NCBI GenBank assembly: GCA_041664165.1
Contig: JBAYLH010000005.1
Location: 344-64,343, forward strand
Reading direction: 5' to 3'
DNA: 64,000 bases
DNA from: Candidatus Buchananbacteria bacterium
GTDB taxonomy: Bacteria; Patescibacteriota; Patescibacteriia; Buchananbacterales; UBA6539
Part shown: positions 9,716-62,092 of the stretch, in pieces
Numbering within the stretch: position 1 is the stretch's first letter
Layout of the letters: the number at the start of each line of letters is the position of its first letter
Position numbers and translations under genes: made by a program
The notes under the pieces: generated by a model
What the model saw: the letters and a program-made list of their open reading frames with translations, nothing else
Database searches by the model: none
Told to the model about the DNA's origin: nothing

Positions 9716-9770
9716 CTTATTATACTAAATTTTTCTAGTCTTGACAAGAGTAAAACAAGAGGAGTAAGAT
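9716..9770. promoter_or_regulatory. divergent promoter pair with overlapping -35 hexamers
   Basis: Plus strand: TTGACA (9741-9746), an 18-nt spacer, then TAAGAT (9765-9770), upstream of the response-regulator gene. Minus strand: TTGTCA (reverse complement of 9742-9747), a 17-nt spacer, then TATAAT (reverse complement of 9719-9724). The minus-strand promoter would drive a long structured leader towards secA. Confidence 0.4.
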
Positions 9771-9822
9771 TAAAAGTCGTTGGTCGAAAATGACAAAAGC
9801 AACCCAACAAGGAGGGTTTGAG

Positions 9823-10560
9823 ATGGAGAGAATAAGAGTACTGCTCGTTGATGACGATCCTGAAATTGTGGATTGTCTTGCCGAAGCCTTAACTAGTCAA
9901 GGCTTCAATGTTTACGGCGTGACTAGTCTCGCTAAAGCCTTGGAGTGGCTGGAGCAAAATACCGTTGACCTGGTTATCACCGATAGCCAGGGGATGTTAA
10001 AGGATCGTAATGACCTCCTTCCGATGATGGAAGAAATCAGGAGAATTACCGCCGTGCCGGTAATTCTGATGACCGACGCCATTAAAGAAAATCAAATCCC
10101 AGAGTTTCTTCAGCAGGGATTTGCTGCCGTCTTAATCAAGGTGGCAACCCTGAAAGATCTCTACGAAGCTATCCGTAAGCCCTTTAGGACAAAGTTCACC
10201 GTCCTAGTGGTTAATGACTGCCAAACCGCATTAGAAACCACGGCCGAGCTTATTGAAACCTTCGGATACAGCGCAGCTACCGCCAAGGACGGTCAGGAAG
10301 CCTGGGAGATGGTCAAAAAAAATCCCCCAAATCTGGTCTTTACCAGTGATTCAATGCCAAGACTTTCCGGACCAGTGCTACTCGAAAAAATGAAAGCTTC
10401 GGCAGACGACACCATCAGCGACATCCCGGTAATCCTTTACGGAACCTGGGCTACCGTTAACGAAATTAGGCTGAGAGAGCAGGGTTTTGCCGTAGTGCTG
10501 CAAAAACCGGCCAAAGCCGAAACAATTAAAGACGCTCTAATAAGCGTCTTGGGCTGCTGA
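9823..10560 (+). CDS. orphan response regulator with two tandem receiver (REC) domains and no output domain
   Basis: REC1 has RVLLVDDD ... DLVITD; REC2 has TVLVVNDCQ ... LVFTSD ... K. The Shine-Dalgarno site AAGGAGGG (9809-9816) sits 7 nt before the ATG at 9823; an alternative in-frame ATG lies at 9790. GC content and codon use (CTG/CTC) are clearly richer than the neighbouring genes. Confidence 0.7.
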   Translation: MERIRVLLVDDDPEIVDCLAEALTSQGFNVYGVTSLAKALEWLEQNTVDLVITDSQGMLKDRNDLLPMMEEIRRITAVPVILMTDAIKENQIPEFLQQGFAAVLIKVATLKDLYEAIRKPFRTKFTVLVVNDCQTALETTAELIETFGYSAATAKDGQEAWEMVKKNPPNLVFTSDSMPRLSGPVLLEKMKASADDTISDIPVILYGTWATVNEIRLREQGFAVVLQKPAKAETIKDALISVLGC

Positions 10561-11590: not shown

Positions 11591-12979
11591 CTAATTTATC
11601 AGTTTATCCCTGACCCGGTAAACATCCCCCGCACCCATGGTTACTAAAACCATGCCCGGCTTAATTTTATCTTTTAAATAATCAATGGCCTGGTTTAAAT
11701 CGCCGGCGTAAACCACATTGGGCTGGTACTTTTTTGTCGCTTCGGCTAAATCTTGGGAAGTAATATCTTGGGCGGTTTCCCGAGCCGAGGCGAAAATATC
11801 GGCGAAAATTACCAAGTTAACGTCGGCAAAACTAGCGGCAAAGTCGGCCAGCAGCGCTTTAGTCCGGGAAGCCATGTGCGGCTGAAAAACGCACCAAATC
11901 AGCTGATCCGGATAGCGGTGCCGGGCGGCGCTGAGCGTAGCTTTGATTTCGCTTGGATGATGGGCATAATCATCGATAAAAGTAACGCCGTTATTTTCCG
12001 AAACATCAAACCTTCTTTCAGTCCCTTGGAAATTTTTTAAAATATTTTTTATCAGTTCAACCGGCAAACCTTCGTTAATACCGACGATAATCGCCGCCAG
12101 CGCATTCAAAACGTTATGCTCACCAAACAGTTTAATCCGAAAATCTTTTAAGTCAAGGGTCTGGCTTTTTACGTCAAAAAGGGTCTGGTTGTATTCATGC
12201 CTGACATTACAAGCCTGCCATAAATTATCTTCGTTAAAGCCGTAAGTAATAACCTTTTTTTGAGTCTGACTGATAATTTTTCTGACACTTGGCCAATCAC
12301 CGCAAGCGACGACTAAATCTTTGGTTTTTTCAACTAATTGCTGAAAAGCTTTTTCGATCGCTTCCAAACTTTCAAAAACGTCAACGTGTTCCCATTCTAC
12401 GCTCGTAATCACCGAAATAGCCGGATCCAAATCTAAAAATTTCGGCATTTTTTCGGTTTTACTTCTGACATATTCATCGCCTTCAACAATGAAATGCCGA
12501 CCATCGCCCCAGCCGGCATTGCTTTTTAAATCCGGAACCGAGCCGGTGCCGATTAAAAAACTGGGTAACAATCCGGCCTGGGAAAAAAGATAGCTGATCA
12601 TCGCCGTTGTCGTGGTTTTGCCGTGAACTCCGGTAACGGCAATGGTTTTCTTTTCTCCGCTTAATAATCCGCGCATTTCAGAATCGGTTATCCAGGGCAA
12701 ATTTCTCTTTTTGGTTTCCGCCACTTCAATATTGTCATCCGACCAGGAAGCGCCGATAATTACCAAGTTCGGCTGGCAATTCAAATTTGCCGCTGAAAAA
12801 TTTTCAAAAACTTCAATTTCGTTGGCAATCAAAATTTTATCGGTAATAAATTTTTCCGAAACATCAGAACCGAAAACTTCAATTCCCCGCTGCTTGCAAA
12901 TCACCGCTAAACCCGACATCGCCACTCCCTTGATGCCGATGAAATATACTTTTTTTACTTTGGTTAAATCAACATTCAT
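11591..12979 (-). CDS. murC: UDP-N-acetylmuramate--L-alanine ligase (MurC)
   Basis: Mur ligase architecture: VYFIGIKGVAMSGLA N-domain and GVHGKTTTTAMI P-loop. It sits in the cell-wall cluster. Confidence 0.8.
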   Translation of the reverse strand: MNVDLTKVKKVYFIGIKGVAMSGLAVICKQRGIEVFGSDVSEKFITDKILIANEIEVFENFSAANLNCQPNLVIIGASWSDDNIEVAETKKRNLPWITDSEMRGLLSGEKKTIAVTGVHGKTTTTAMISYLFSQAGLLPSFLIGTGSVPDLKSNAGWGDGRHFIVEGDEYVRSKTEKMPKFLDLDPAISVITSVEWEHVDVFESLEAIEKAFQQLVEKTKDLVVACGDWPSVRKIISQTQKKVITYGFNEDNLWQACNVRHEYNQTLFDVKSQTLDLKDFRIKLFGEHNVLNALAAIIVGINEGLPVELIKNILKNFQGTERRFDVSENNGVTFIDDYAHHPSEIKATLSAARHRYPDQLIWCVFQPHMASRTKALLADFAASFADVNLVIFADIFASARETAQDITSQDLAEATKKYQPNVVYAGDLNQAIDYLKDKIKPGMVLVTMGAGDVYRVRDKLIN

Positions 12980-13066: not shown

Positions 13067-13951
13067 TTATAAGCCCAAATCCTGCTTAATCTGCGGCAAA
13101 GCCGCCATTGCCGCTTTTCGCCCTTCATTAATGCAATACTGAACCGAATTAACGTGATATCGCCTTACCCGGCTAATATCGGGTTTAATTAAAGCGTCAT
13201 AGCGATAGGCATGATGATATAAATTATTAATTTCGGTGGCTGACAGAACAAATACCCGCCACATTGTCTGAATTATATTCAAATTGCATAAACCGTTATT
13301 TTTCATCGAACAAATCGTCTCCCGGCTTTTTTTCACCCTTTTAAAGTTGGAAAAAAATCTGGTAACAAAGCTGGGATCTCTGGAAACATAAACCGCAATC
13401 ACGTAATCGGCGCCGCTGTCATAAAGCGGTTTGGAAGGAATCATATTAAAATTCCCGCCGTCAATGATAATTTTTCCAGCCCAATTCACCGGCACAAAAA
13501 TACCGGGAACGGCCGTGGCCGCCTGAATCGCTTTGCCGACCGGGCCTTCGGTAATCATCATTTCTTCCATACTGGCCAAATCAGTTACCGCCAAAATTAA
13601 TTTTTTATCCAAATCGGAAAACTTTTTATCGCCGACAAATTCTTCAAAAAATACCCGGTTTCGTTCGCCTTTAAGCAACCCGGCTTTCGGCATGGTCGGC
13701 TCAATAATCACATTCCAAAAATCACGCCTTCGGCCTTCAACCAGGCGTTTTTTGAGCTGAGGCAAAGTCCCGGCCGCATAAGCCGCGGCCACCGCCGAAC
13801 CGGAGCTGCAGCCGGCCAATAAGTCAATCGGGATATTATTTTCGGTCAAAACTTCAATGACGCCGATGGCCGCAGTCGCCCGAATAAAGCCGCCGGAAAT
13901 AGCCAAGCCTACTTTTATTTTAGGTATTTTAGGTTTTTGTTCTTCATTCAT
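13067..13951 (-). CDS. patatin-like phospholipase family protein
   Basis: GGFIRATAAIGV oxyanion region and GCSSG (GXSXG) nucleophile elbow. Confidence 0.7.
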   Translation of the reverse strand: MNEEQKPKIPKIKVGLAISGGFIRATAAIGVIEVLTENNIPIDLLAGCSSGSAVAAAYAAGTLPQLKKRLVEGRRRDFWNVIIEPTMPKAGLLKGERNRVFFEEFVGDKKFSDLDKKLILAVTDLASMEEMMITEGPVGKAIQAATAVPGIFVPVNWAGKIIIDGGNFNMIPSKPLYDSGADYVIAVYVSRDPSFVTRFFSNFKRVKKSRETICSMKNNGLCNLNIIQTMWRVFVLSATEINNLYHHAYRYDALIKPDISRVRRYHVNSVQYCINEGRKAAMAALPQIKQDLGL

Positions 13952-13954
13952 GGT

Positions 13955-15001
13955 TTATAAAATCATTTTGGCAATTTTTTCCGCCGCCTTGGCTGGCATA
14001 ATTTTTCCGATATTGCGGCTTAAATTTGCCAATTCCGCTTGGTCGAAAAGCAGCTGCTTAATCGCTTGGGCAAAATCTTTTGGCTCCAGTCCGGCTTCAT
14101 TGACGACGGCAATCGCGTTATGGCGAAAAAATTCCGTGGCATTTTCCTGCTGATGGCTTTGCGGCAAAGGAATAATTAAAGCGGGTTTGGCTAAGGCCGC
14201 CAGCTCAGTCAAAGTACCCATACCGGCTCGGGCAACAACCAAATCAGCCGCGGCATAAGCGTTTTTCAGCTGGTCGGTTAAAAAATCAAAATTTCGGTAG
14301 CGGGGGTCGGAAAAATTTTGGATCGGTTTGCCGCCGGTTAAATGAATCACCTGGCAAAACTTTACTAATTCAGCAATACTGCCGGCAACTAGCCGATTAA
14401 TGCTTAAAGCGCCGGTGCCGCCGCCCAAAATTAAAACCGTCGGCAGCTGCGGGTCAAAATTAAAAAATTTGTAGCCGGCTTCCCGGCTGCCGGTAAGGAT
14501 TTCCGGCCGAACCGGATTGCCGGTTAAAACTGTTTTCGGCCCGGGAAAATCAGCCAGCGATTTCGGGAAAGCCACGGCAATAATACTGGCAAACCGCGCC
14601 ATTAATTTATTGGCCAAACCGGGCCGAATATCCTGCTGTAAAATCAAAACCGGCCGGCGGCAAAGCCAGGCCGCCCAAGTTACCGGCACGGCAACAAACC
14701 CGCCGGCCGAAATTACCGCTTGGGGTTTAAATTTCAAAATTATTGCCAGCGCCTGAAAAAAACCGAAAATAATCAAAATTGGATCAAAAAAATTCTGCCA
14801 GGAAAAATAGCGGCGGAATTTACCGGCGAAAATTTTTTTCAGCGGAATTTGATAGCTGCCGATTAATTTATCCTCCGGCCCATCGGAAGTTGCCAGCCAC
14901 AAAAACTCAGCACCGGGATGCTGTTTTTTAATTTCTTCATAAACCGCAATCAAAGGGCTGACTGAACCGATCGTGCCGCCCCCGGAAAATAATATTTTCA
15001 T
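13955..15001 (-). CDS. murG: undecaprenyldiphospho-muramoylpentapeptide beta-N-acetylglucosaminyltransferase (MurG)
   Basis: GT-B MurG sequence (ILFSGGGTIGSVSP ... GGGTGALSIN). Confidence 0.85.
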   Translation of the reverse strand: MKILFSGGGTIGSVSPLIAVYEEIKKQHPGAEFLWLATSDGPEDKLIGSYQIPLKKIFAGKFRRYFSWQNFFDPILIIFGFFQALAIILKFKPQAVISAGGFVAVPVTWAAWLCRRPVLILQQDIRPGLANKLMARFASIIAVAFPKSLADFPGPKTVLTGNPVRPEILTGSREAGYKFFNFDPQLPTVLILGGGTGALSINRLVAGSIAELVKFCQVIHLTGGKPIQNFSDPRYRNFDFLTDQLKNAYAAADLVVARAGMGTLTELAALAKPALIIPLPQSHQQENATEFFRHNAIAVVNEAGLEPKDFAQAIKQLLFDQAELANLSRNIGKIMPAKAAEKIAKMIL

Positions 15002-15005
15002 AACT

Positions 15006-15037
15006 AAAAAATAGCAGATTTGGGCTTAAAAATCAAC
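15006..15037. repeat. 32-bp direct repeat, copy 1 (aaaaaatagcagatttgGgcttaaaaatcaac), flanking an inserted cassette
   Basis: Identical to 15964-15997 apart from one mismatch. It lies immediately upstream of the murG start codon. Confidence 0.8.
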
Positions 15038-15258
15038 AGCGGAAAAAAAATTTGTTGGATAATAAATCGGTAAAATAACTAATTCTAGCTATCCTTTCAT
15101 TTTGAATTTGCCGCGCAAAGACAACGCGTGAATATCGAAATCTTCCATTGGCGTCATCGCGAACGCTTCTTTTTCTCCCGACCCTTAAATAGTTTATCAT
15201 TAGCCAATATTTATCCCAAAAAGGTAACTTTAACTCTACGATTTTGGGGGCTACATTT

Positions 15259-15287
15259 TGACAGATAGCTTAAAATAAGCTATATTA
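15259..15287 (+). promoter_or_regulatory. sigma70-like promoter for the inserted antisense ORFs
   Basis: TTGACA, a 17-nt spacer, then TATATT. Confidence 0.45.
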
Positions 15288-15377
15288 CTATGTTGGTAGG
15301 GTTACCATCGCGCGTGCGGCGGTATTCCGACCGGTTACAATGCAACTTTACCCAACAAACAAGGGAGGAATTGGCGA

Positions 15378-15742
15378 TGACTATCGGCGAGTTTTTGTTT
15401 CGGAGTTTGGCAAAGGGGTTTGCAAGGTTCTGCGAATTTCTGTGGGACTACAAATCTTCCGCTGTCCTGGCCATGACGGGGTCGTTAGCATACTCATTGT
15501 TGTATGGCTTTCGAAATCCCCACCATGTTAAACGTGGATACTACAATTTCGTTCAACCTGGAGCCGATGTGACTTGGGACATGACAAGATATGTCTGGGG
15601 AGCATTATGGTCAGGAATAGACCAGTGGCTTGGTAATATCCATTGGGTAGCCGGTTTGATGGTTATAGCGGTTTTGATCCATTGGGCCGTCGTGAAATTG
15701 CTGACCTACAAACTGCCATCTCACCACGAAAAACAACGGTGA
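15378..15742 (+). CDS. hypothetical membrane protein encoded antisense to the dcw operon; GC-rich and SD-bearing
   Basis: Shine-Dalgarno AAGGGAGG 7 nt before ATG. Two hydrophobic helices plus a Trp-rich region. About 48-50% GC against roughly 40% background. The track ORF starts earlier, at 15290. Confidence 0.4.
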
Positions 15743-15758
15743 GAAAGGAGGAAAGGCA

Positions 15759-15878
15759 ATGTACTGTAGCTATTGCGGAAGCAGGGAGCATAATATTTCC
15801 CTGTGCCCCAAAACACATACCGGAAGTGCTGCTAGAGCATGGCACCCCGAAAGTATAGCCGATAATCGTATCGACTAA
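15759..15878 (+). CDS. 39-aa Cys-rich peptide (MYCSYCGSREHNISLCPKTHTGS...), SD-bearing
   Basis: Shine-Dalgarno AAAGGAGG 6 nt before ATG. CxxC...C spacing. Below the ORF-track cutoff and found by reading the sequence. Confidence 0.3.
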   Translation: MYCSYCGSREHNISLCPKTHTGSAARAWHPESIADNRID

Positions 15879-15963
15879 ACCTGTCGGCTTAAGCCGAGGG
15901 GTTTACTCCAAAAAAAAACACCGAAGCCTGGCGATAATTTCAAAGGGCTTCTTTTTCTTTTTC

Positions 15964-15997
15964 AAAAAAAATAGCAGATTTGAGCTTAAAAATCAAC
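15964..15997. repeat. 32-bp direct repeat, copy 2, at the 3' end of ftsW
   Basis: aaaaaaaatagcagatttgAgcttaaaaatcaac; it overlaps the ftsW stop codon. Confidence 0.8.
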
Positions 15998-17156
15998 TGA
16001 TTTCCCGCGAAATATTAGCTAAAATTCCGACGGCCGCTAACGAAGCGGCCAAAGCCGTGCCGCCATAACTGACAAAAGGTAAAGGAATACCGGTTAAAGG
16101 CATCAAACCAATCATCGCGGCAATATTGAAAAAGGCTTGCAAAACAAACCAGGAAGTTATGCCAATGATGACAAACCGGGCATAATCATCGCTAACGGCT
16201 TGAGCTAATTTTAATCCCCGCCAGGCTAAAAGGATAAATAGACCAATCAAAGCCACGGCAAAAATAAAGCCCAATTCTTCGGCAATGATGGCAAAAATTG
16301 AATCGCCCATGACTTCCGGCAGATAAGCAAATTTCTGGCGCGACTGGCCAAAACCTAAACCAAAAAATCCGCCGGAACCAATCGCCAAAAAAGCCTGGTT
16401 GATATGGTAACCGATTCCCTGCGGGTCAATTTTCGGATTCAAAAAAGTCAAAAGCCGCGCCGCCCGATATGGTGCCTGAATGACTAAAATGCCAAAAGCC
16501 GCTAGCCCACCCAAAATTAACCACAAAATATGGGTGAATCTGGCGCCGGCGGTAAAATAAACGGCCAAAGAAATACTAACGATTATGATCAAAGTGCCTA
16601 AATCCGGCTGCATTACCACTAAAAGCGAGATTAAACCCAAAATTACCGCAAACGGCACCAGACCATTCCAAAAATCATTATTTAGTTCCCGGCCGCGATA
16701 AGAAAACCAACCGGCCAAGCCTAAAATTAAAAACAGCTTGACGATTTCAGCCGGCTGAAACGAAAAAAGGCCAAAGACATTAATCCAGCTTTTAGCCGAA
16801 CTGCCATTATTGGAACCGATCCCCGGCAAAAAAACTAAAAGTAAAAGTATCAAAGAAATAATAAAAAACCAAACCGTGTATTTTTCCAGCCGCCGGTAAG
16901 GAATGGCGGCAAAAACAAAAAAGAAAGCCACCCCGGGGATAAAGCCGCTGACGACTTGGTGCCAAAAAAGGTAGTAGGTACTGCCAAAATTTCGATAAGA
17001 CTCAACCGCCGACGCCGAAGAAAGCATGATTAGGCCAAAAACCGTAATGAGGCCAAAAATACCCAGTAAAAAATAGTCTGGCTTGCCTAAAATTTTTTCT
17101 AAGTTCAGCCGGCTGGTTAGTTTTTTTTTACTTTGTTTAAAGTGAAACCGCTTCAT
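15993..17156 (-). CDS. ftsW: SEDS-family peptidoglycan glycosyltransferase FtsW
   Basis: Ten-TM SEDS protein with conserved QPDLGT, a PYRRLEK-region and SYGGT blocks. It overlaps murD by 4 nt. Confidence 0.85.
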   Translation of the reverse strand: MKRFHFKQSKKKLTSRLNLEKILGKPDYFLLGIFGLITVFGLIMLSSASAVESYRNFGSTYYLFWHQVVSGFIPGVAFFFVFAAIPYRRLEKYTVWFFIISLILLLLVFLPGIGSNNGSSAKSWINVFGLFSFQPAEIVKLFLILGLAGWFSYRGRELNNDFWNGLVPFAVILGLISLLVVMQPDLGTLIIIVSISLAVYFTAGARFTHILWLILGGLAAFGILVIQAPYRAARLLTFLNPKIDPQGIGYHINQAFLAIGSGGFFGLGFGQSRQKFAYLPEVMGDSIFAIIAEELGFIFAVALIGLFILLAWRGLKLAQAVSDDYARFVIIGITSWFVLQAFFNIAAMIGLMPLTGIPLPFVSYGGTALAASLAAVGILANISREIS

Positions 17157-18661
17157 TTTTTTAAGCCTAAAACAATTTGATTAAACTGATCGCCCCGGTC
17201 ATATTCATGGATAAATAAATTAAACGAGGCACAGGCCGGCGAGAGCAAAATAGTACTTCCTGATTTAGCAAAACTTTTAGCCAAACTAACGGCCGGTAAC
17301 ATTTCATTAACCCCAAAAACAAAATTCCGATAATTAACCTTTTTTAATTGCTTGGCAATCTGCTCGCTGCCTTCGCCGGAAAATAATACCACCGCTTTGC
17401 AAGTCTGTTTAATGATGCCGGCTAGCTCCCGATATTTGGCTTCGGGAATATTTTTAGTCGCGCCGCCGGCAATTAAAATAATGTTTTTAGCTTTTAGCTT
17501 ATAGCTTGTAGCTTGCAGAGTATTAAGGGCGGCGATAGTTCCATCGGGCGTGGTAGCAGTTGTATCATTGACATAATCAACCCCATCAACTTGTCTGATA
17601 AATTCAATCCGACCCGGCAAGCCGTTGAAGCTAGCCAAGGCTGATTTGATTTCTTTTGGTTTTACTCCAAAAATTCCCGCCACGGTCAAAGCGGCTAAAA
17701 TATTTTCTAAATTATGCTCGCCTTTCAGCTTGCAAGCGGACAAGCTGGCAAGCTGGCTAATTCTGCCATTGAACCGAAAATAAATTTTGCCATTTTTAAC
17801 GAAACTGCCGTTTTGCTCCTTAAACTCTTTTTTGGAAAACCAAAACCGCCGAGCCGCCACGCTTTGCCCCATTTTTCTAGTATCAGAATTATCTAAATTC
17901 AAAATCGCAAAATCACTTTCTTTCTGCCAAGAAATTATATTCTTTTTCGCCGCGATGTAATCAGCCATTCCCAAGTAACGATTCAAATGATCCGGATAAA
18001 TATTGGTAACCAAGGCGATATTTGGACTTAACTTTTGCTGGCCTAAAATTTCCAGCTGCCACGACGAAAGCTCTAAAACCGCCAAATCATCGGTTTTAAT
18101 TTGATCTAAAATTTCCAGCATTGGCTTTTGCGGCAATCCTGCCAGCCAAACCTTTCTTCCTGTTCTCTGATTTCTGTTCTCTGATTTCTGATTTCTGTTT
18201 TCTGTTTTCTGTAATAATTCATAAATTAAACTAGCCGTCGTTGATTTGCCGCGAGTGCCAGTCACGCCAATAATTTTAGCGGGGCCTGCCTCGCCTATTC
18301 TATTGCGAAGTAAGCGGCAAGGCGGGCAATTTTTAAAAAATAAACTGGCATCATTTTCCGTTAGAATCCCGGCTTTTTCGGCAATTTTCAGGTATTTTGA
18401 CTGCCGCGGAACACCCGGGTTTTGAATAATCAAATCAGCGTTTTTAAAATCAATTTCGCGGTGCCGACCTAAGATTAGTTTGCAAGTTGGTAAGTTGGTA
18501 AGTTTTCTGAGGGAAGGTTCTAATTCTTTTTTAGTTTTTAAATCAGTCACGGTCACTTTAGCTCCGTGTTTTACCAGCCATAAGACAACTGCGACTCCAC
18601 CGCCGTGAAGTCCCAAGCCCATGACTGTTACTTTTTTGCCTTGAAATAAATTTTTTACCAT
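17153..18661 (-). CDS. murD: UDP-N-acetylmuramoylalanine--D-glutamate ligase (MurD) with in-frame low-complexity insertions
   Basis: KVTVMGLGLHGGG N-domain, GVTGTRGKSTT P-loop and Mur ligase C-domain. About 50 aa longer than typical MurD because of repeat-encoded inserts. Confidence 0.85.
   Translation of the reverse strand: MVKNLFQGKKVTVMGLGLHGGGVAVVLWLVKHGAKVTVTDLKTKKELEPSLRKLTNLPTCKLILGRHREIDFKNADLIIQNPGVPRQSKYLKIAEKAGILTENDASLFFKNCPPCRLLRNRIGEAGPAKIIGVTGTRGKSTTASLIYELLQKTENRNQKSENRNQRTGRKVWLAGLPQKPMLEILDQIKTDDLAVLELSSWQLEILGQQKLSPNIALVTNIYPDHLNRYLGMADYIAAKKNIISWQKESDFAILNLDNSDTRKMGQSVAARRFWFSKKEFKEQNGSFVKNGKIYFRFNGRISQLASLSACKLKGEHNLENILAALTVAGIFGVKPKEIKSALASFNGLPGRIEFIRQVDGVDYVNDTTATTPDGTIAALNTLQATSYKLKAKNIILIAGGATKNIPEAKYRELAGIIKQTCKAVVLFSGEGSEQIAKQLKKVNYRNFVFGVNEMLPAVSLAKSFAKSGSTILLSPACASFNLFIHEYDRGDQFNQIVLGLKK
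18158..18212. repeat. in-frame tandem microsatellite (ttctctgatttctg / ttttctg units) inside murD, encoding ENRNQKSENRNQ
   Basis: Direct tandem repeats are visible in the sequence. A second short repeat, ttggtaag x2, lies at 18487-18502. A tagctt-rich repeat at 17475-17500 encodes KLQATSYKLKAKN. Confidence 0.75.
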
Positions 18662-18665
18662 TTTC

Positions 18666-19685
18666 TTATTTAGTATTTCCAGCTAATTTCTTGATTTGCT
18701 CAATTATTTTTTTATCAACTTCAAGCCAGCCTCGCCGCAAAGCTATTTCTTTATTTTGATAGGCTTTCTTACCGGGTATAACAATTTCTTTAATCCCCTT
18801 CTTTCTTTTTACTGATTTAATTTCTTTAATAAACTGGCTATTTTTTTGCTTAAATTTTTTTAAAGAAGTAAAAACTGACGGATTAATGGCAATAAATAAA
18901 GCCCCCCTATATTTTTTGCCATATTTATCTTTTGAGCTGCCAATATCTTTTTTCTTGTATCCGATTTCCGCGTTCACCAAAGACCCGGTCAAAATCTCAA
19001 ATAAAATACCCAAGTTAAATCCTTTATAATCGCCAAAAGGCAGAGCGGCAAAAAAAGAATCGGGATCTTTAATAATTTCACCTTTTTTGTCGACAAAAGA
19101 ATCTTCTGGCAAATCGCGGCCTAATAGTTTGGCTAATTTAACTTCACTGATGGCTTTTTTTGAAATTGCCATGTCGCAAACAATCGGTTTTCCAAAAGTT
19201 GGAATGGCAAAACCAATCGGATTGGTAGCAAGTATTGCATCTAAACCACCAGGCGGCACCACAGTTGGCCCACCGCCGTTGATCAAGACTAAACCGATCA
19301 AATCATTTTCGGCAATTTTTTCCGCTTGGCTGCCCGGGCGCAGGAAAGGCAATGAATCATAAACTCCAACCATGGCAATCCCGGTTTTTTTAGCCATTTT
19401 TATTACTGCTTTAGTTGCTACGCCAGCCACCAATTGGCCAATCTGACCATTGGCATTCAGCAACAAAAAATTATTACTTTTTCGACTAACCAATATTTTT
19501 TTAGCCTTAGTCTGCCCCGCTTTTTCTATTACTCCTGAAAAACTTATTAAGCCATGAGTTATTTTACCCAAGAGTTCACCTTCAAGATAATCAGCCACAA
19601 CTATTTTTGCTTCAGCGGGTTTTAGTCCCCGCTTAATTAAAATTACTTCGCAAAGCCGTCGAATTTCCTTAATTTTGACCTTCAT
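18666..19685 (-). CDS. Ldh_2 family (malate/L-lactate/sulfolactate dehydrogenase-like) oxidoreductase
   Basis: The N-terminus (EIRRLCEVILIKRGLKPAEAKIVVADYLEGELLGKITHGL) matches the Ldh_2 family pattern. Its ~340-aa length fits that family. Confidence 0.45.
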   Translation of the reverse strand: MKVKIKEIRRLCEVILIKRGLKPAEAKIVVADYLEGELLGKITHGLISFSGVIEKAGQTKAKKILVSRKSNNFLLLNANGQIGQLVAGVATKAVIKMAKKTGIAMVGVYDSLPFLRPGSQAEKIAENDLIGLVLINGGGPTVVPPGGLDAILATNPIGFAIPTFGKPIVCDMAISKKAISEVKLAKLLGRDLPEDSFVDKKGEIIKDPDSFFAALPFGDYKGFNLGILFEILTGSLVNAEIGYKKKDIGSSKDKYGKKYRGALFIAINPSVFTSLKKFKQKNSQFIKEIKSVKRKKGIKEIVIPGKKAYQNKEIALRRGWLEVDKKIIEQIKKLAGNTK

Positions 19686-19770
19686 ACGTGATCCAATTAA
19701 CTTTCTAAAATCTTTTCTTTAGTCTATCCACAATTCATAATTAATAATTTCTAATTAATAATTCTAACTC

Positions 19771-20811
19771 CTACCCCTTAGACACTAAAAACAAAATTAA
19801 CCCGATAATTGACGAAACCGCGGCCACGACCCAAAAGCGCATCACGATTTTCGGTTCCGGCCAGCCGATTGCTTCTAAATGATGATGCAAGGGCGAAGAA
19901 ATAAAAAACTTCCGGCCAAAAACTTTTTTCCAAAACATCTGGATTAAAACGGAAAATGTCTCCACCACAAAAATAAAACCGATAATCGGCAAAAACAAGG
20001 CGGCATTAGTCAGCATCGCAATAATTCCCAAAGTTACTCCCAAAGACGTTGAACCGGTATCGCCCATAAAAAATCGGGCCGGATTGATATTAAACCACAA
20101 AAAAGCCAAAAGCGCGCCCATAATCACCCCGCAAAAAGCCGCTAAGTTATACCGGCCCTGGGAAAAAGAAATAACGCCGTAAGCCGCAAAAGCCGCCAGT
20201 AAAGTGCCGCCGGCCAAACCATCAAGCCCGTCAGTTAGGTTAACGGCGTGCGCTGTGCCGATAATGACAAAAATGAAAAACGGAATATACCACCAGCCGA
20301 TATCGAAATAACCGGCAAATGGAATATACAGCGTTGTCCACCCCAATTTGTAGTAAAACCACCAGGCGCCGACAACGGCAATTAAGCCATAAATCAAAAA
20401 ACGATGGCGCATCCGCAAACCGCCGCCGTCTTTTCCCATCCGCCAAATATCAAACAAATCATCAACCAAACCGACCAGAGCCGAAGCGACTAAAGCACCA
20501 AGGGGCAATAAGGTTTCGCTGCGGGACAAAAAATCCAACTTGCCCAAAAAACCGCCGAAGAACTGGTTGAGATAAAAAAACAAAAGCATTAAAAATAAGG
20601 TTGTTCCCCAGACCAAAACGCCGCCCATCGTCGGCGTACCGGCTTTTTTTTGGTGCATACTGGCAAAAACCGGCGCGACTTTGGCGTCCCGAATTCCCTT
20701 GCCCAAATGATATTTGTATAAAAAATAAGTTAAAAACGGCGTCCAGGCCAAAGTCAGGATAAAAGACACCGTCGCCAAAAAAAAGACTTTTACAAGATAA
20801 AAATCAACCAT
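19771..20811 (-). CDS. mraY: phospho-N-acetylmuramoyl-pentapeptide transferase (MraY)
   Basis: Ten-TM MraY with the Asp-rich loop (VDDLFDIWR) and the NLTDGLDGLAGG and HHHLEA motifs. Confidence 0.9.
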   Translation of the reverse strand: MVDFYLVKVFFLATVSFILTLAWTPFLTYFLYKYHLGKGIRDAKVAPVFASMHQKKAGTPTMGGVLVWGTTLFLMLLFFYLNQFFGGFLGKLDFLSRSETLLPLGALVASALVGLVDDLFDIWRMGKDGGGLRMRHRFLIYGLIAVVGAWWFYYKLGWTTLYIPFAGYFDIGWWYIPFFIFVIIGTAHAVNLTDGLDGLAGGTLLAAFAAYGVISFSQGRYNLAAFCGVIMGALLAFLWFNINPARFFMGDTGSTSLGVTLGIIAMLTNAALFLPIIGFIFVVETFSVLIQMFWKKVFGRKFFISSPLHHHLEAIGWPEPKIVMRFWVVAAVSSIIGLILFLVSKG

Positions 20812-26951: not shown

Positions 26952-28010
26952 ATGATTTTTGATGTCAATAAAAATATTTTCGGCCTTGATATTAGCGATC
27001 GGGCCTTACGGCTTGTCCAGCTCAAAAAATCGGGAAATAAAATAATCCTGGCTTCTTATAATGCCTTAGAAATACCGGCTGATGTTATCGCCGGCGGCGA
27101 AATCAAGCAAGAAGAAAAACTAGCTGAACTAATCAAAAAATTAGTTAAGACAGCTAACGGTAAAAAAATTAAGACAAAAAATACGGTAACCGTCTTGCCG
27201 GAAACTAAAACTTTTATTAAAGTAATCGATGTTCCTTCGGTTGGCAACGATGAAGAGCTGGCCGAAATTATCAAAGAAGAAATTAAAAATCATATTCCGC
27301 TGAGCTCAGACGAAATCTACTTGGATTGGCAAATTTTAGCAAAACAATCAGGATCAACAAAAGTGCTAATTGGCGCCGCTCCGAAATACATCGTTGATTC
27401 TTATTTCTCCGTGATCGAAAAAAGCGGCCTCGTGCCTTATGCTTTGGAGATCGAATCAGCGGCAATTGTCCGCAGCTTATTTGCCAAAGATGATAAAACC
27501 GCCAAAATTATTGTTGATTTCGGCGCCGTCCGGACCGGTTTAATTATTTATAGCCAAAAGGCAATCCCTTTCACTATCACTCTGCCGATTTCCGGCAATA
27601 AAATTACGGATACCATTGCTACAACTTTAAAGCTAGACCCGCTAAAAGCCGAGAAAGCTAAAATTGTCTGCGGTCTTGATCCAAAAAAATGCGAAGGCGC
27701 ATTGCTGAAAATTCTGCTTAAACCGATCCAAAGTATCGCTGACCAGATCAAAAAAGCGATAATTTTTTATAAAAGTAATTTCTCAATCAATAATGAAATT
27801 TCCGAAGTCATCCTTTGCGGCGGCGGCGCTAATTTTTCTAATATCGACAAAATTCTGGCCGAAAAATTAAATCTGACAGTAAAAATCGGCAATCCCCTGA
27901 CTAATATTGCAAAAACTAAAAAAATCAAAATCCCGCCAGATAAAATTTTATCCTATACTACGGCAATCGGCCTGGCCCTGAGGGCTTTTCAAAAAAAAGA
28001 CGTAATATGA
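26952..28010 (+). CDS. pilM: type IV pilus assembly protein PilM (actin-like ATPase fold)
   Basis: FGLDISDRALRLVQL N-terminus, an actin/FtsA-like fold, and the CGGGAN segment. Confidence 0.8.
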   Translation: MIFDVNKNIFGLDISDRALRLVQLKKSGNKIILASYNALEIPADVIAGGEIKQEEKLAELIKKLVKTANGKKIKTKNTVTVLPETKTFIKVIDVPSVGNDEELAEIIKEEIKNHIPLSSDEIYLDWQILAKQSGSTKVLIGAAPKYIVDSYFSVIEKSGLVPYALEIESAAIVRSLFAKDDKTAKIIVDFGAVRTGLIIYSQKAIPFTITLPISGNKITDTIATTLKLDPLKAEKAKIVCGLDPKKCEGALLKILLKPIQSIADQIKKAIIFYKSNFSINNEISEVILCGGGANFSNIDKILAEKLNLTVKIGNPLTNIAKTKKIKIPPDKILSYTTAIGLALRAFQKKDVI

Positions 28011-31933: not shown

Positions 31934-32743
31934 TTATTTGCTGACTATAATTACCACCTTTCTCCCCTGCGCCATTTCGGCGTCAGTCATGCCGCCGCTA
32001 GCCAGCTCGTGATTCCAATCGTGAACCGCGTTAATCAGGGTTTGATATTTATAACGATAACCGGCTCCGTTTCTGGTACCGGGGTCATTAGTGATAAACT
32101 CGCCCCTGGCTTCGTCATAACCGCGGGCAACTAGCATGTGGTAAATCGGGCCTGGCGGTTTAAAATTGGGATTGCCCAAAAGCCGGCCGGCGGCGGGAAT
32201 AATAATCAAATTCCCGGCCAGTAACTCCTTTTTAATTCTGGCAACCGTCACTTCGCTTGTTACTTCGGCTTTTAAGCTAAAATAACTTTTCAAAATTACC
32301 GTCGCTTCACTGGCCGTCACGTCAACTTGATAGCCATTTTGTTCTTCCCATTTTACCAAATTTAAAATCCCCTGTTCCATCAAATGGGCGCTCAGCGGCT
32401 CGCCCTTGAAATACTTTGCCGTCATAATCATGGCGGCTTCTTCGCAGGCTTCTTCGTGCAACGCATCCCAATTGGCAAGCGGCGCTTGAGACGCAAAAGC
32501 TACCGGATAATCCAAAAATTTCGACGGTTCGCTATTGGTTTCTGGCTTGGGTTTTTCTGCCTCAACTTTCGCGGTGGAAGTGGCTTTGACTGGCTCAACT
32601 GTTTCCGGCGGCAAAGCCGGCGTTGAAGTTACCGATGAATCTTTATCTTGACTGACCAACTTACCAGCTTTATCTTGACTGGCCGTCTGGCAGCCAGCCA
32701 AAAGCAAAATAGGCAAAATTAACCATAAATACTTGATTTTCAT
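31934..32743 (-). CDS. lipoprotein with a putative C39-like/papain-fold peptidase domain
   Basis: Lipobox LLLAGC. A Pro/Thr/Glu/Lys-rich linker is followed by a ~190-aa domain with Cys and His residues arranged like YvpB/C39_2. The similarity is weak. Confidence 0.3.
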   Translation of the reverse strand: MKIKYLWLILPILLLAGCQTASQDKAGKLVSQDKDSSVTSTPALPPETVEPVKATSTAKVEAEKPKPETNSEPSKFLDYPVAFASQAPLANWDALHEEACEEAAMIMTAKYFKGEPLSAHLMEQGILNLVKWEEQNGYQVDVTASEATVILKSYFSLKAEVTSEVTVARIKKELLAGNLIIIPAAGRLLGNPNFKPPGPIYHMLVARGYDEARGEFITNDPGTRNGAGYRYKYQTLINAVHDWNHELASGGMTDAEMAQGRKVVIIVSK

Positions 32744-37791: not shown

Positions 37792-39228
37792 TTATATTTT
37801 TCTCACCACGCCATTATCCGCATCGACTTCCACTTTGTCACCGTCTTTTAAAATTTTGGTTGAGATCTTAGTCCCAACAATACAAGGTATCTTTAATTCT
37901 CTGGCAACAATCGCCGCATGACAAGTCAAACCGCCTTCATCGGTAACTATTGCCGCCGCCTTTTTCATAATCGGCAGCATCTCCGGCCGGGTCATACCGG
38001 TAACCAAAATATCGCCTGATTTCATTTTGTAAAAGCCGCTTTCGCCAAATATCACCTTAACTTCACCTGAAACTTTGCCGCCCGAAGCGACTGTCCCGGA
38101 AATTTTATCAAGCCGGCCATGAATTTTTTTGAACTCTTTTGGGATTCGTTTTTTCGCGTCATTGCCGCTGTAAACTTTAAAAAATTTCTTTTGGTAATCC
38201 ACGTCCAAAATCATAAACTCTTTTCTTTTTTTCAATTCCGCTAAGTTAAAACTTTTTCCATTTTTTAAAACCAGGAGCTCTTCAAGCGTAAAAAATTGAA
38301 GATCCGATAAGCGATAGCCGAATCTTTTTGCCAATTCTTCGCGAATGTCGTCGGCATAAAATATTGACTTGACAAAAATTTCTTTCCGCCGGTCACGCAA
38401 TGGCCCGATTTCATCAACAATATCAATCAACTGCCGGGTTTTTTTATCAAACTTGTACTTTTTAATGATCTGTTTTTTCCGTTTCTCCAAATTTTTCTTA
38501 AAATCCGCCAGGTGTTTTAATTCTTCAGTCAAATTTTTATGCTGTTTGATCAATTCATTGATTCTTTTTGCAAAATAATCGGCATCGACTAGCTTTTTGC
38601 CGCTATGGCCGGTTGCCAGCCATTCATATTTTTTAAGATGGTTGTCTAAATCCTTTTGAATTTTTCGGCCGCTTCTTTTTTTAATCGCTAACCTGATTAA
38701 CTTTTGGGCTTCCAAATTTAAGTAACTGATGTCGGGAATTGCCGCTGAATCGGAAAATTCATCGCTGGAAAGTTTATATTTCATTAATTCTTTTTCAAAA
38801 ATCCGGGGCAAAACGTAATCAAAAGCTTCGGCAAAAAAACCGTAGCTAAACATTTCTTTGTAGCATTTCGTAAAGAAGTCCAAATGACCAAATAAGGCAT
38901 CAACCGACATCGCTGACGGGTTTTTTTGCCGGTACTCCAAGATTTTTTTATCCAATTTTGACTTTAATCCGGCTAATCCTATTTTGATTTTAGCCCTGAA
39001 CTTTTTAGCTTTAAATTTGTTATAGCATTTATTGCCAATTACGATATTGTCTTTAATTAGAGTACTCCATCTAAACGGCTGATTTTTTTCCAAAATTACC
39101 AAATTGCGATCAAAGCCAAACCCGTAAATTTTTCGCATGCCGACAGTCATCGCCCAGGCCGCTTCCGGACAAATCCAATAAATCGCCTCGGCTTCGTCAA
39201 TATCCCATTTCGGATTTGTTTTTTTCAT
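37792..39228 (-). CDS. PEP-utilizer paralog 1: divergent N-terminal domain plus C-terminal phospho-histidine swivel domain (rifampicin-phosphotransferase-like C-terminal half)
   Basis: The C-terminal ~100 aa (GDILVTGMTRPEMLPIMKKAAAIVTDEGGLTCHAAIVARELKIPCIVGT) is a PEP-utilizer mobile domain with the catalytic His. It begins 10-14 nt after the stop codon of the PPDK_N gene. Confidence 0.7.
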   Translation of the reverse strand: MKKTNPKWDIDEAEAIYWICPEAAWAMTVGMRKIYGFGFDRNLVILEKNQPFRWSTLIKDNIVIGNKCYNKFKAKKFRAKIKIGLAGLKSKLDKKILEYRQKNPSAMSVDALFGHLDFFTKCYKEMFSYGFFAEAFDYVLPRIFEKELMKYKLSSDEFSDSAAIPDISYLNLEAQKLIRLAIKKRSGRKIQKDLDNHLKKYEWLATGHSGKKLVDADYFAKRINELIKQHKNLTEELKHLADFKKNLEKRKKQIIKKYKFDKKTRQLIDIVDEIGPLRDRRKEIFVKSIFYADDIREELAKRFGYRLSDLQFFTLEELLVLKNGKSFNLAELKKRKEFMILDVDYQKKFFKVYSGNDAKKRIPKEFKKIHGRLDKISGTVASGGKVSGEVKVIFGESGFYKMKSGDILVTGMTRPEMLPIMKKAAAIVTDEGGLTCHAAIVARELKIPCIVGTKISTKILKDGDKVEVDADNGVVRKI

Positions 39229-44570: not shown

Positions 44571-46157
44571 TTATTTTCTTTTTAAAATCGTTACCACTCC
44601 GTGATTGCCGTTAACCTCGACTAGATCCCCGTCTTTGAGAACTTCCGTGGCAATTTTCGTGGCAATCACGCAGGGAATGCCCAGCTCTCGGGCAATGATG
44701 GCGGCGTGACAAGTAACTCCACCTTCGTTAGTAACAATCGCCGCGGCTTTTTTAATCCCCATGATATAATCCGGCCGCGTCATCACGGCTACCAAAATAT
44801 CGCCCGAATTAACTTTGCCGACTTCATGAGCGCTTTTGACGATTTTAACCATGCCCCGCACTTTGCCACTGGAAGCGCTTAAGCCGCGAAAATCATTAAT
44901 ATTTTTTTTGATGCCGGTTTTAAATATCGCCTTCTGCAGCTGACGAGCTTCTTTCCCGGCGACTATTTCATAAGTCTGTTTATGATCATAATGAAAACTG
45001 AATTCCCTTCGTTTTCTGGCTTCGTTTCGGGAAACATAATGCCCTTGGCCGGTAAACAAAGTTATGACTTCGAAATAAAACAGACATTTCATTTCCACCA
45101 AGGAATAACCAAAGCGTTTACCGATTTCCGCCAAAAAAACTGAGCCGCAATGAGTCGCCAGAAAAGTACATTTTTTTCGCTCGTCTTGCCAATAAGTAAA
45201 AGTTTCGGAAATTTCAATTAGATTAACCAAAAATTTGGGCAGCTTTAATTTTTTTATTAATTTCTGCTTGTTAATTTTGCTTTTTCGGGGTGAGCCTTCA
45301 ATCCTTTTAATTTGCCCGGCCAAATCAATTTCATTTTTTAACAATTCCTTGATTTCCTTGATAAAAAAAGAAATGTTTAGAATATGGCTGTCAACATAGT
45401 TATTTTTACCCCAAAAATAATTTTGCCGGTGTTTTTGCAAAATTTGATATTCGGCCGAAAAATTCCTTATTTTTTTTAAAATTAGACTCAAATTATCAGC
45501 GATAAAAATTTTTCTTAATTTCTGGTTTTGATAAATTTTCAAAGCGACTTTCAATAAAGCAATTTCCGCTTCATTGATGAATGATTGGCTGGTCGGCGCC
45601 GTCAGAACGGAAAAAATTATTCCCCGGCCTTTAATGATTTTTTTACTGTCCAAAAATTTATTTAACTCCGTTTGAATATACTCATCGCTGCCCAAGGCGA
45701 AACCATCAATAACTGAACTCATTGTTGTCCAGCCAAAATATGACCTGAAAAAATCTTGATATAAATTTTTTAATTCCTCGTCAGATAGCCTGGTTAAATT
45801 TATTTTATCCAATTCATCGCATTTTTTTATAAAAGCAATTTTATCTTTATCCCATTTCTGCATAATTTTTTTGCCGATGCCAAAGGGCTCGCAAAAACTT
45901 TTTTTAATAAAAATACTACAAACACGGCGAATATCGGCTAAATCAATATACCAATCAACCCGATTATCATTAAAAATTATCAAATGATTCGTAAATTCCC
46001 CGCCTTTTTCTTTTCTTGGTTCCGGCTTAAGCTCCATCTGGCCAATTAAATAAATAAGATTCGGACAACCGTCAAACCTTTGGTGATACCATTCTTTTTT
46101 CTTTAATTTTTTTAGGTCTTTTTTAATTAAGCCTTTTTTAAACTGCATGCAAGACAT
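44571..46157 (-). CDS. PEP-utilizer paralog 2 (divergent N-terminal domain plus His swivel domain)
   Basis: C-terminus GDILVAVMTRPDYIMGIKKAAAIVTNEGGVTCHAAIIARELGIPCVIAT. Confidence 0.7.
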   Translation of the reverse strand: MSCMQFKKGLIKKDLKKLKKKEWYHQRFDGCPNLIYLIGQMELKPEPRKEKGGEFTNHLIIFNDNRVDWYIDLADIRRVCSIFIKKSFCEPFGIGKKIMQKWDKDKIAFIKKCDELDKINLTRLSDEELKNLYQDFFRSYFGWTTMSSVIDGFALGSDEYIQTELNKFLDSKKIIKGRGIIFSVLTAPTSQSFINEAEIALLKVALKIYQNQKLRKIFIADNLSLILKKIRNFSAEYQILQKHRQNYFWGKNNYVDSHILNISFFIKEIKELLKNEIDLAGQIKRIEGSPRKSKINKQKLIKKLKLPKFLVNLIEISETFTYWQDERKKCTFLATHCGSVFLAEIGKRFGYSLVEMKCLFYFEVITLFTGQGHYVSRNEARKRREFSFHYDHKQTYEIVAGKEARQLQKAIFKTGIKKNINDFRGLSASSGKVRGMVKIVKSAHEVGKVNSGDILVAVMTRPDYIMGIKKAAAIVTNEGGVTCHAAIIARELGIPCVIATKIATEVLKDGDLVEVNGNHGVVTILKRK

Positions 46158-46160
46158 ATA

Positions 46161-46230
46161 CTATTTTATTTTTTTAACCACGCCTTTATCAGCATCTACC
46201 TCAATTCTGTCGCCTGTCTGAAAAACCAAG
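46161..46230 (-). pseudogene. remnant of the last ~20 codons of a PEP-utilizer paralog (..FQTGDRIEVDADKGVVKKIK*), fused to REP sequence
   Basis: The tail matches the DRIEVDAD.G..KKI C-termini of the intact paralogs. The upstream part of the 64-aa track ORF is a translation of hairpin repeats. A second, ~8-codon tail remnant (AERVVKKI*) lies at about 46893-46920. Confidence 0.55.
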
Positions 46231-46242
46231 GCCGTGGTCTTT

Positions 46243-46350
46243 AAAAAAAATGGCGACCCGACTTTTCCGCCCGAGGCGGATGCGCCCTGACTGCCGTCAG
46301 GGCGGCGATAGGCAGGCTTTGGCGCAAGTCGGCATTCATTTAAATAATTT
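46243..46350. repeat. REP/BIME-like hairpin block, left flank of the RAYT gene
   Basis: The aaaaaaaatggcgacccgactt ... gtcggcattcatttaaataattt unit recurs at 46942-46996. Internal perfect hairpins: cgccctgac tgcc gtcagggcg (46283-46303) and ccgcc cga ggcgg. Confidence 0.65.
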
Positions 46351-46863
46351 ATCAAAGTTAGTTCTATCTTCCAAATTTAAGGCATTAACTGATAAAATCA
46401 GATCCTGAATCGTCTGCTCTCCATATTGAGCCGCCCCTTGCTTGCAGCTGGTAAAGGGACTGCTATTCAATTCATCAAAATTCTTGGCTTCTCCATGTTT
46501 TAAAAGATTACCTAAGATATAGCCTAAAACCTTTTTTAATTTTTCCTCGTCCACCACTTTTTCCCAATACTCGCCCCAGACGCTCCGCTTGATATTATTT
46601 AAAACATTTAATTCATGGGAACTGCCGCCGGCGATAAATTGTTCTAATTTTGGCAAAACCTCGCCTTTTGGTAAATAAATCAGGTAATGGTAATGATTGG
46701 AAATAATACTGAAGGCATGGAGCGAAAAATTAAATTTTTTTTGAGCGGCCATCAAACGATTTAAAATGATTTTCTTCTTATCAGCGGTGTCAAACAGCTT
46801 TTCATGGTTATTGGTTGAGCGAGTGACAAAATAATAGCAATCATCAAAGTATAAATGAATCAT
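46336..46863 (-). mobile_element. REP-associated tyrosine transposase (RAYT; IS200/IS605 TnpA-like, HUH Y1)
   Basis: HUH motif SNHYHYLIY, an N-terminal YYFVTRSTNNHEKLF block typical of RAYT/IS200 TnpA, and ~175 aa length. It is flanked on both sides by hairpin-rich repeats. Confidence 0.65.
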
Positions 46864-47008
46864 ATAATCTGTTATAGCCGACTAAAGTCGGGTTACCTAA
46901 TTTATTATATTTTTTTAACTACTCTCTCGGCAAAAATGAACTTTAAAAAAATGGCGACCCGACTTTAGTCGGCATTCATTTAAATAATTTCTCGTCGGGT
47001 TACCTAAT
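46864..47008. repeat. REP/BIME-like hairpin block, right flank of RAYT
   Basis: Contains gccgactaaagtcgg hairpins, two copies of gggttacctaatttatt, and a direct copy of the aaaaaaatggcgacccgactttagtcggcattcatttaaataattt unit. Confidence 0.65.
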
Positions 47009-49791: not shown

Positions 49792-49792
49792 A

Positions 49793-61548: not shown

Positions 61549-61614
61549 ATAATAATTTTAAAGTAGTAAAAAATAATTAGCTAATAATCATTCATTAATC
61601 CAACAAGTGTGCGG

Positions 61615-61650
61615 GTAAACCCGGCACCACCTGTTACCAATATTTTACTC
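61615..61650. repeat. 36-bp direct duplicate of the rmlB start region (aaacccggcaccacctgttaccaatattttactcat), a second copy of 61513-61548
   Basis: Exact repeat visible in the sequence. The copy would encode MSKILVTGGAGF followed by unrelated residues and a stop. Confidence 0.8.
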
Positions 61651-61665
61651 ATAAACAAAAAGGTG

Positions 61666-62088: not shown

Positions 62089-62092
62089 ATAA

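Follow-up and report, generated by a model that had tools for sequence, protein, structure and literature searches.

An apparently recent, moron-like insertion between ftsW and murG, bounded by two copies of a predicted murG promoter, in an uncultured Patescibacteria bacterium

We have analysed a 64-kb stretch of DNA (the window) from an uncultured, Buchananbacteria-like bacterium of the Patescibacteria (Candidate Phyla Radiation, CPR), in which two genes of the dcw cell-wall cluster, ftsW and murG, are set apart by a short segment bounded by direct repeats (hereafter the cassette). Both genes, between which a preliminary description of this DNA had placed the segment, read on the minus strand: ftsW lies upstream of the segment (15993-17156; Pfam FTSW_RODA_SPOVE, E 4e-95) and murG downstream of it (13955-15001; Pfam Glyco_transf_28, N-terminal domain E 1e-30, C-terminal domain E 4e-26), with murD (17153-18661, -) and murC (11591-12979, -) as further members of the cluster. 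The separation amounts to 991 nt, within which two copies of a 32-nt direct repeat (15006-15037 and 15966-15997) enclose 928 bp. The copies agree at 31 of 32 positions, the difference being G at 15023 and A at 15983 (repeat position 18). The near-identical, singly mismatched repeats of the preliminary description are therefore real, and its left copy was correctly placed; its right copy, started at 15964, took in two extra A's. That description had also allowed that the repeat might be a common intergenic motif, but in the window it is unique to these two sites (2 matches vs 0.00 expected), and the cassette itself is present once.

Read from the murG side, the cassette opens with a non-coding section of 220 nt and 36% GC without recognisable feature (15038-15257), to which no similarity was found in any of the related loci fetched. 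It holds a weak terminator-like site on the plus strand (15150-15176), and an open reading frame (ORF) of 55 codons on the minus strand (15033-15200) is probably spurious. There follow, all on the plus strand, a predicted sigma-70-type promoter, an 84-nt leader whose fold is not significant (z -0.3), and two genes, encoding a 121-aa small helical membrane protein (15377-15742) and a 39-aa CCHC zinc-knuckle protein (15759-15878). The promoter, TTGACA-17-TATATT (15258-15286), is the one first noted, and matches the consensus motif at 11 of 12 positions. A stem-loop recognised as an inverted repeat (I2) and by folding overlaps the 3' end of the second gene (15873-15908), and the segment closes with a predicted bidirectional intrinsic terminator (15910-15963). 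Since the terminator hairpin (15923-15951) stands between a run of nine A's (15910-15918) and a T-rich run (15952-15963), it is predicted to act on both strands; its fold z-scores are -4.2 on the plus and -2.8 on the minus strand, and on the latter GGUGU9 directly follows the hairpin. With a predicted promoter and a predicted terminator of its own, the cassette would be an autonomous, insulated unit antisense to the dcw genes. The antisense transcription unit of the preliminary description thus stands, as a predicted self-contained one, while the head-on collision with dcw transcription that was expected from it would be limited by the bidirectional terminator at the ftsW-proximal end.

The cassette is not fixed in the population. 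Contig L004 (JGI 3300037810, also in NCBI), found through its exact FtsW protein, carries the empty site with a single repeat copy that the preliminary description had proposed to look for: its FtsW is identical to that of the window, its murG starts 31 nt past the ftsW stop, and its flanks are otherwise the same. Three assemblies made independently of one another (ENA ERZ27249449, Logan SRR6484324 and a JGI contig of 1131 bp) show the filled junctions with 100% identity. Because sample JGI 3300037810 holds both the filled allele, on the 1131-bp contig, and the empty one, on L004, both coexist in one community. L004 is a distinct strain and not an assembly collapse, as it carries single-nucleotide polymorphisms (SNPs) on both sides of the junction: 15 in 3936 nt on the ftsW side (15966-19901; 0.4%) and 25 in 662 nt on the murG side (14376-15037; 3.8%), the first of the latter being the repeat mismatch. 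Divergence between these co-occurring strains is thus about 10 times greater on the murG side than on the ftsW side. From this asymmetry the locus would be a recombination mosaic with its breakpoint at the cassette, which suggests that presence and absence alleles are swapped between strains via flanking homology.

That the cassette is an artefact of assembly, whether through chimeric joining or through collapse at the repeat, is scarcely credible. The source is metagenomic and the 1131-bp contig is a bubble contig within the JGI sample, but three assemblers and samples returned the same filled junctions with unique flanks, the SNPs around the empty site are its own, and a repeat of 32 nt is below the usual assembly k-mers. 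In close relatives the ftsW-murG spacers are only 31-70 nt long, and with the empty site of L004 they uphold the earlier view of the segment as inserted and non-ancestral. These comparisons lead us to regard as well supported that the insertion is real, recent and strain-variable. In the opposite case, the cassette would be an old resident and the empty allele of L004 a deletion by recombination between the repeats. Such recombination would yield exactly the empty site observed, and the composition of the cassette is host-like (see below); yet neither of its proteins is encoded in any of 80 related loci, the sole distant homologue of the 121-aa protein sits in a different context, close relatives are short and empty at the junction, the repeats still agree at 31 of 32 positions, no variation separates the three filled copies, and the creation of the repeats would itself still need an insertion. 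We consider this origin quite improbable. Of the two findings that the preliminary description had named as pointing to an old resident, the same ORFs in related genomes and a host-like composition, only the second was obtained.

The repeat, initially treated as an anonymous boundary, has an identity of its own. On the minus strand it reads G-TTGATT-TTTAAGCYCAAATCTGC-TATTTT-TT, and is followed by AGTT and the murG ATG. In the left copy (15006-15037, -), which on the repeat search and its conservation would be the working murG promoter, the -35 box TTGATT (15036-15031) is followed by a 17-nt spacer with the TG of an extended -10 and by the -10 box TATTTT (15013-15008), which ends 6 nt ahead of the murG ATG (15001). 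In the right copy (15966-15997, -), identified by the repeat search and pointing into the bidirectional terminator, the TGA within the -35 TTGATT is the stop codon of ftsW (15995-15993). An element of the form TTGATTTT..TG.TA...T, a pattern conserved in 12 sequences, is present after ftsW or before murG in ten related sequences, in which TTGATTTT, TG, TA and the last T never change and the remaining positions vary; the motif is kept in relatives with only 59-68% FtsW identity, the adjoining bases varying. In the window, TTGAYW-N14-TGNTAWWWT has three occurrences vs 0.04 expected, one in each repeat copy and one elsewhere. Because the motif is conserved in relatives and enriched in the window, and four host genes have a -10 box similarly close to the ATG (see below), we infer that the repeat is the conserved promoter of murG, duplicated by the insertion.

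The position of this -10 box implies that the murG mRNA is likely leaderless, with transcription predicted to start from the A of the start codon. Four host genes, murG included, have a -35/-10 pair that ends 4-9 nt before the ATG (1783-2736, 13955-15001 and 31934-32743 on the minus strand; 26952-28010 on the plus strand), and these close pairs, together with the near-absence of Shine-Dalgarno sites, suggest that leaderless initiation is widespread in the host. Indeed, Shine-Dalgarno sites precede none of 56 first ATGs and at most 7 of 63 genes at any candidate start, cassette ORF included, in keeping with the initial remark that host genes mostly lack them; the relatives are likewise poor in such sites. 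A subgroup of Parcubacteria has been reported to be without the anti-Shine-Dalgarno motif in its 16S rRNA (PMC9297842); the window is without an rRNA gene. The two cassette genes are preceded by strong sites, as was first noted: AAGGGAGG (15361-15368, +) is set 8 nt upstream of the ATG with which the 121-aa gene starts and AAAGGAGG (15744-15751, +) 7 nt upstream of that of the 39-aa gene, and no other AA[AG]GGAGG octamer occurs in the window, whichever strand is read.

The 121-aa protein, announced as a membrane-protein ORF at these coordinates, is a near-orphan. Its hydrophobic segments span approximately residues 29-45 and 84-113, and an AlphaFold2 model is all-helical, with four helices, at low confidence (pLDDT, the predicted local distance difference test, 51.5) and unfit for a fold search. 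Among 1.84 billion representatives it has one true homologue (P0003; 111 aa, ~28% identity; E 2.4e-4 against the whole library and 2e-12 pairwise), with which it has in common the MTIG start, a YNFVxPGxD motif and the hydrophobic layout; the assigned start codon is supported because the homologue also begins MTIG. A profile of the two proteins returned no further member from 5.8 billion proteins. The homologue is encoded by a stand-alone gene with a TTGACA promoter, a AAAGGAGG ribosome site and a terminator, located between obg and a BI-1 gene on a contig of ~33% GC, with no zinc-knuckle gene near. Residues 59-96 of the 121-aa protein (15551-15664) also match ten copies of an 11-residue unit, WDGTKYVxGAx, in a large, secreted-looking protein of 1263 aa (P0002; E 2.9e-10), a match that may reflect a shared amphipathic repeat and not true homology.

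The second product, described at first as a 39-aa CxxC peptide, does carry such a pair, within a CX2CX4HX4C knuckle whose ligands are C3, C6, H11 and C16 in MYCSYCGSREHNISLC; the match to Pfam zf-CCHC_2 (E 0.007) misses the curated cut-off. It is 63-69% identical (E ~4e-20), tail AARAWHPESxAD included, to two proteins of 68-69 aa with two knuckles each (P0004 and P0005), and it matches the phage family phrog_9083 at E 8e-4, P0004 doing so at 3e-6. Identity to members of the family is 56-69%. These are proteins of 66-70 aa with two tandem knuckles; the cassette product, with a single one, aligns to their second unit and tail (alignment A2) and looks as though it had arisen by deletion of one unit of 29 aa. 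Relatives of the 39-aa protein occur on contigs where nearly all adjacent genes match PHROGs, and in 20 viral loci of IMG/VR; P0004, P0005 and the IMG/VR relatives are set in strings of phage genes. The phrog_9083 genes vary in the phage module in which they stand (early genes, replication, head-tail or lysis), a placement typical of a floating accessory gene. These matches assign the 39-aa gene to phrog_9083, and with it the supposed phage connection of the cargo holds for one of the two genes. No phage gene was found within 8 kb either side of the cassette, the neighbours being dcw, secA and pilus genes. Neither product has a Pfam match above cut-off, or any match in NCBIfam or PADLOC. The pair would probably be a phage-style accessory, made up of a small membrane protein and a small zinc- and nucleic-acid-binding protein.

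Related genomes place the insertion in a broader setting. FtsW relatives in GTDB species representatives are at most 68% identical and come from Candidatus Buchananbacteria, Parcubacteria or Patescibacteria metagenome assemblies. In some 50 loci holding both genes, the gap between ftsW and murG is mostly 2-150 nt. In eight relatives the gap widens to 437-3087 nt and holds unrelated cargo: a diversity-generating retroelement (bAvd and reverse transcriptase; L014), DoxX (L009), NUDIX (L077), a phosphofructokinase-like gene (L057) and orphan ORFs (L006, L011, L012 and L013). No direct repeats above chance flank the cargo of these eight. In L011, L013 and L006 the promoter motif stands 5, 6 and 17 nt before the murG ATG, respectively, with the cargo on the ftsW side and often behind a terminator-like hairpin; such hairpins follow ftsW in several relatives. 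Among the dcw genes conserved in the clade, ftsW-murG is the sole loosely spaced junction, the others being tight. The junction thus appears to be an operon boundary with an internal promoter, and a permissive, cargo-tolerant site across the clade. The cassette had been thought to divide the operon into separately regulated units; since murG has a predicted promoter throughout the clade and hairpins follow ftsW in several relatives, it would make no new operon split. Two further features of these gaps deserve mention: the retroelement of L014 (4047-7140) includes, besides the genes for a bAvd-like protein and a reverse transcriptase, a candidate target gene encoding 228 aa, and the gap of L059 (7147-7272) contains a 68-nt tandem duplication with 57 of 58 aligned nt identical.

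We propose, with a probability of about 0.75, that a foreign fragment of 928 bp was recently inserted into the 31-nt spacer between ftsW and murG in a single strain lineage, and that it behaves as an insulated unit like the 'morons' of phages, which are reportedly autonomous promoter-gene-terminator units placed between conserved genes (a concept of Hendrix and co-workers). The insertion would have duplicated 32 nt that make up the whole promoter, so that ftsW keeps its stop codon and murG an intact promoter, the left copy. The cassette would then follow in the order own promoter, 84-nt leader, two genes with Shine-Dalgarno sites and bidirectional terminator. This terminator would end the cassette mRNA before ftsW and stop read-through from ftsW; transcripts from the right promoter copy would be stopped there after about 50 nt, and murG would rely on the left copy alone. 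The choice of site would reflect that it is a natural boundary between operons, where cargo is tolerated clade-wide. Most likely the fragment originated in a phage or some other pool of mobile genes, and a single entry is probable, through recombination of the illegitimate or template-switch type or through the 32-bp homology; the alleles would now be shuffled between strains by ordinary homologous recombination. As for the products, they probably serve a phage-derived accessory, moron-like function at the membrane, which we put forward with low confidence.

Several observations weigh against a foreign origin of this kind. (i) The composition is host-like and provides no evidence of it: the unique part of the cassette has 44.0% GC and its ORFs 47.0% and 47.5%, vs 47.7% in murG, 43.6% in ftsW and 40.9% in the window, and the segment first called GC-rich is no richer than its neighbour murG. 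(ii) No donor has been found. Cassette blastn against phage and plasmid records gave no match, and the exact repeat pattern is absent from viral and JGI metagenome contigs. The 121-aa family has no member in viral contigs or phage records. The earlier suggestion that the 121-aa protein or the repeat might turn up in phage or plasmid sequences, or elsewhere in the genome, gained no support from the collections searched or from the window, the repeat being confined to its two copies in the window and the 121-aa protein being without a phage homologue. (iii) A resident response-regulator gene, which reads on the plus strand among minus-strand genes (9823-10560), has the same promoter, leader and Shine-Dalgarno layout as the cassette: its TTGACA promoter is followed by a leader, and AAGGAGG stands 7 nt ahead of its ATG; response-regulator genes of 27-34% identity, a weak similarity, stand at the same place in four relatives. 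The Shine-Dalgarno contrast between cassette and host is real, but given a resident gene with the same layout, the ribosome sites of the cassette are unusual without being proof of foreign origin. Homology of the two leaders (9740-9825 and 15258-15380) was rejected: they have only ACCCAACAA and the ribosome site in common and are otherwise unalignable. (iv) A duplication of 32 nt goes far beyond need and requires a mechanistic cause, for an overlap duplication of 4 nt, TTGA, would alone keep both the ftsW stop and the murG promoter. Only 4 nt being needed, the length of 32 nt would reflect the mechanism of insertion and not selection.

This length is also among the arguments for a site-specific alternative, in which the repeats are attL and attR and the cassette is a phage, a satellite or a small integrative element that brought a copy of the 32-bp site. 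It would have entered through a site-specific recombinase or a single Campbell-type crossover, and would now be a decayed remnant or a recombinase-dependent mini-element, with a predicted circular or attP junction ...GGGCTTCTTTTTCTTTTTC-repeat-AGCGGAAAAAAAA... The exact direct repeat and the precise one-copy empty site resemble those of integrative elements and their recombinase-less (cis-mobilisable) derivatives, the cargo includes a gene of a phage family, and the repeat holds a small dyad, GATTT-N8-AAATC. Yet 5-nt dyads are weak in AT-rich DNA, and Pfam revealed no integrase or recombinase in the 928 bp or in the annotated genes 8 kb either side. No second copy or free attP form was present in the collections searched; the mismatch would fall inside the putative overlap region; and the repeat falls exactly on a conserved host promoter, unlike the att sites formed by the end of a tRNA or other gene. 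A scan for tRNA and tmRNA genes found none, and Rfam gave no RNA family either in the whole window (gathering threshold) or in 14950-16050 (E up to 5). An att origin is in our view doubtful, though it deserves to be kept in mind.

Within a recent insertion of foreign DNA, a one-off illegitimate or template-switch event is our tentative choice of route, and it draws support from a second repeat structure in the window (61512-61653). There, a perfect 38-nt direct repeat (61512-61549 and 61616-61653) surrounds a 66-nt insert, so that an epimerase-like gene (60538-61548, -) has its first 12 codons in duplicate; a look-up of its protein returned no record. The insert places a TAAAAT box 6 nt ahead of the downstream ATG and contains an 18-nt exact inverted copy of 62090-62107. 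This looks like a local template-switch rearrangement that would have given the epimerase-like gene a leaderless promoter of its own, and it hints that long-repeat insertions recur. The idea that the 66-nt insert resembles the cassette at its left end was considered and rejected (score 15 vs a null of 12.2 ± 1.6). It is unlikely, in our estimate, that the 32-nt duplication, which covers the promoter from -37 to -5, is the footprint of an undescribed integration route of the CPR; such a route might take the form of staggered joining at the two edges of a promoter bound by RNA polymerase, or of a fork template switch where polymerase occupies the promoter. If it did exist, foreign promoter-gene-terminator units could enter operon boundaries with neither neighbour harmed. 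Searches of the literature on morons, on leaderless translation in Patescibacteria and on homology-facilitated illegitimate recombination yielded nothing that bears specifically on this case.

A long direct repeat abutting an insert could also be the target-site duplication of a transposon, and a non-autonomous element similar to miniature inverted-repeat transposable elements would be comparable with the IS1202 group, whose target-site duplications measure 27-28 bp. We judge this very improbable. Terminal inverted repeats were looked for on the cassette and rejected (score 8 vs a shuffled null of 8.1 ± 1.6), and no inverted-repeat pair joins its two ends; it exists as a single copy in the window, where no DDE transposase was seen, and with neither terminal inverted repeats nor a recombinase it bears no sign of self-mobility. 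The window does contain, elsewhere, a gene resembling that of a REP-associated (repetitive extragenic palindromic) tyrosine transposase, but Y1 and REP-associated transposases make no target duplications. The transposase-like gene in question (46336-46863, -; NCBIfam E 7e-17, under the cut-off) is flanked by repeated hairpin-like sequences (46241/46942, 46327/46967 and 46887/46994) and adjoins a 3' fragment of a paralogue (46161-46226). The whole region (46161-47031) lies within a run of five paralogues (44571-46157 and 47009-52809), a sixth copy of which stands at 37792-39228; their common C-terminal motif is ...GIPCVxGT...GDxIEVDAxxGxV.

Compared with known systems, the cassette is a well-documented small insertion of the moron-like type and no new kind of system. 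Like morons, it has a predicted consensus promoter, small genes and a predicted terminator, lies between genes that are adjacent in close relatives, is present or absent in near-identical genomes, and includes one gene from a phage family of variable genome position. Unlike them, it sits in a bacterial cell-wall gene cluster and not in a phage or prophage genome, has a 32-bp target duplication at its ends, and is host-like in composition. Its 39-aa product shares the CX2CX4HX4C motif and the AARAWHPESxAD tail with the double-knuckle proteins of phrog_9083, but has one knuckle and is encoded on a bacterial chromosome. Integron cassettes are of similar size (about 1 kb), likewise hold one or two ORFs and are structured at the 3' end; they differ in that the present cassette has a predicted promoter of its own, no IntI or attI nearby and no array, and that 32-bp direct repeats are no feature of theirs. 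Finally, the locus resembles the 'genomic islets' found at permissive inter-operon sites, as unrelated cargo occupies the same junction in relatives and the cassette alleles are apparently exchanged by flanking homology; unlike the cargo of the relatives, the cassette is so young that its exact junction duplication persists.

CPR organisms are uncultured and gene flow among them is poorly documented. The locus offers a gene gain in a CPR genome that is apparently recent and resolved to the base pair, with the filled and empty alleles in one community. It also indicates that the dcw cluster of this clade is split at ftsW-murG by a conserved, probably leaderless promoter, and that accessory cargo, a diversity-generating retroelement included, has repeatedly come to lie at this boundary. 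In a host with few Shine-Dalgarno sites, two genes that have strong ones would naturally report on whether such sites function there. In functional terms the return is modest unless a specific mechanism underlies the 32-bp duplication; the interest of the case lies in a clean empty/filled pair within a CPR population, in the duplication of a promoter and in the unexplained length of 32 nt.

Two other genes of the cluster are variable or unusual. An Ldh_2 gene (18666-19685) between mraY and murD marks a second variable spot and is present only in the lineage of the window (the window and L004) and in L023. A patatin-like phospholipase gene (13067-13951, -), an unusual resident of a dcw cluster, is packed tightly between murG and murC, a position that it keeps throughout the Buchananbacteria-like clade, and is found there also in L005, L006, L008, L009, L011, L012, L014, L015 and L023.

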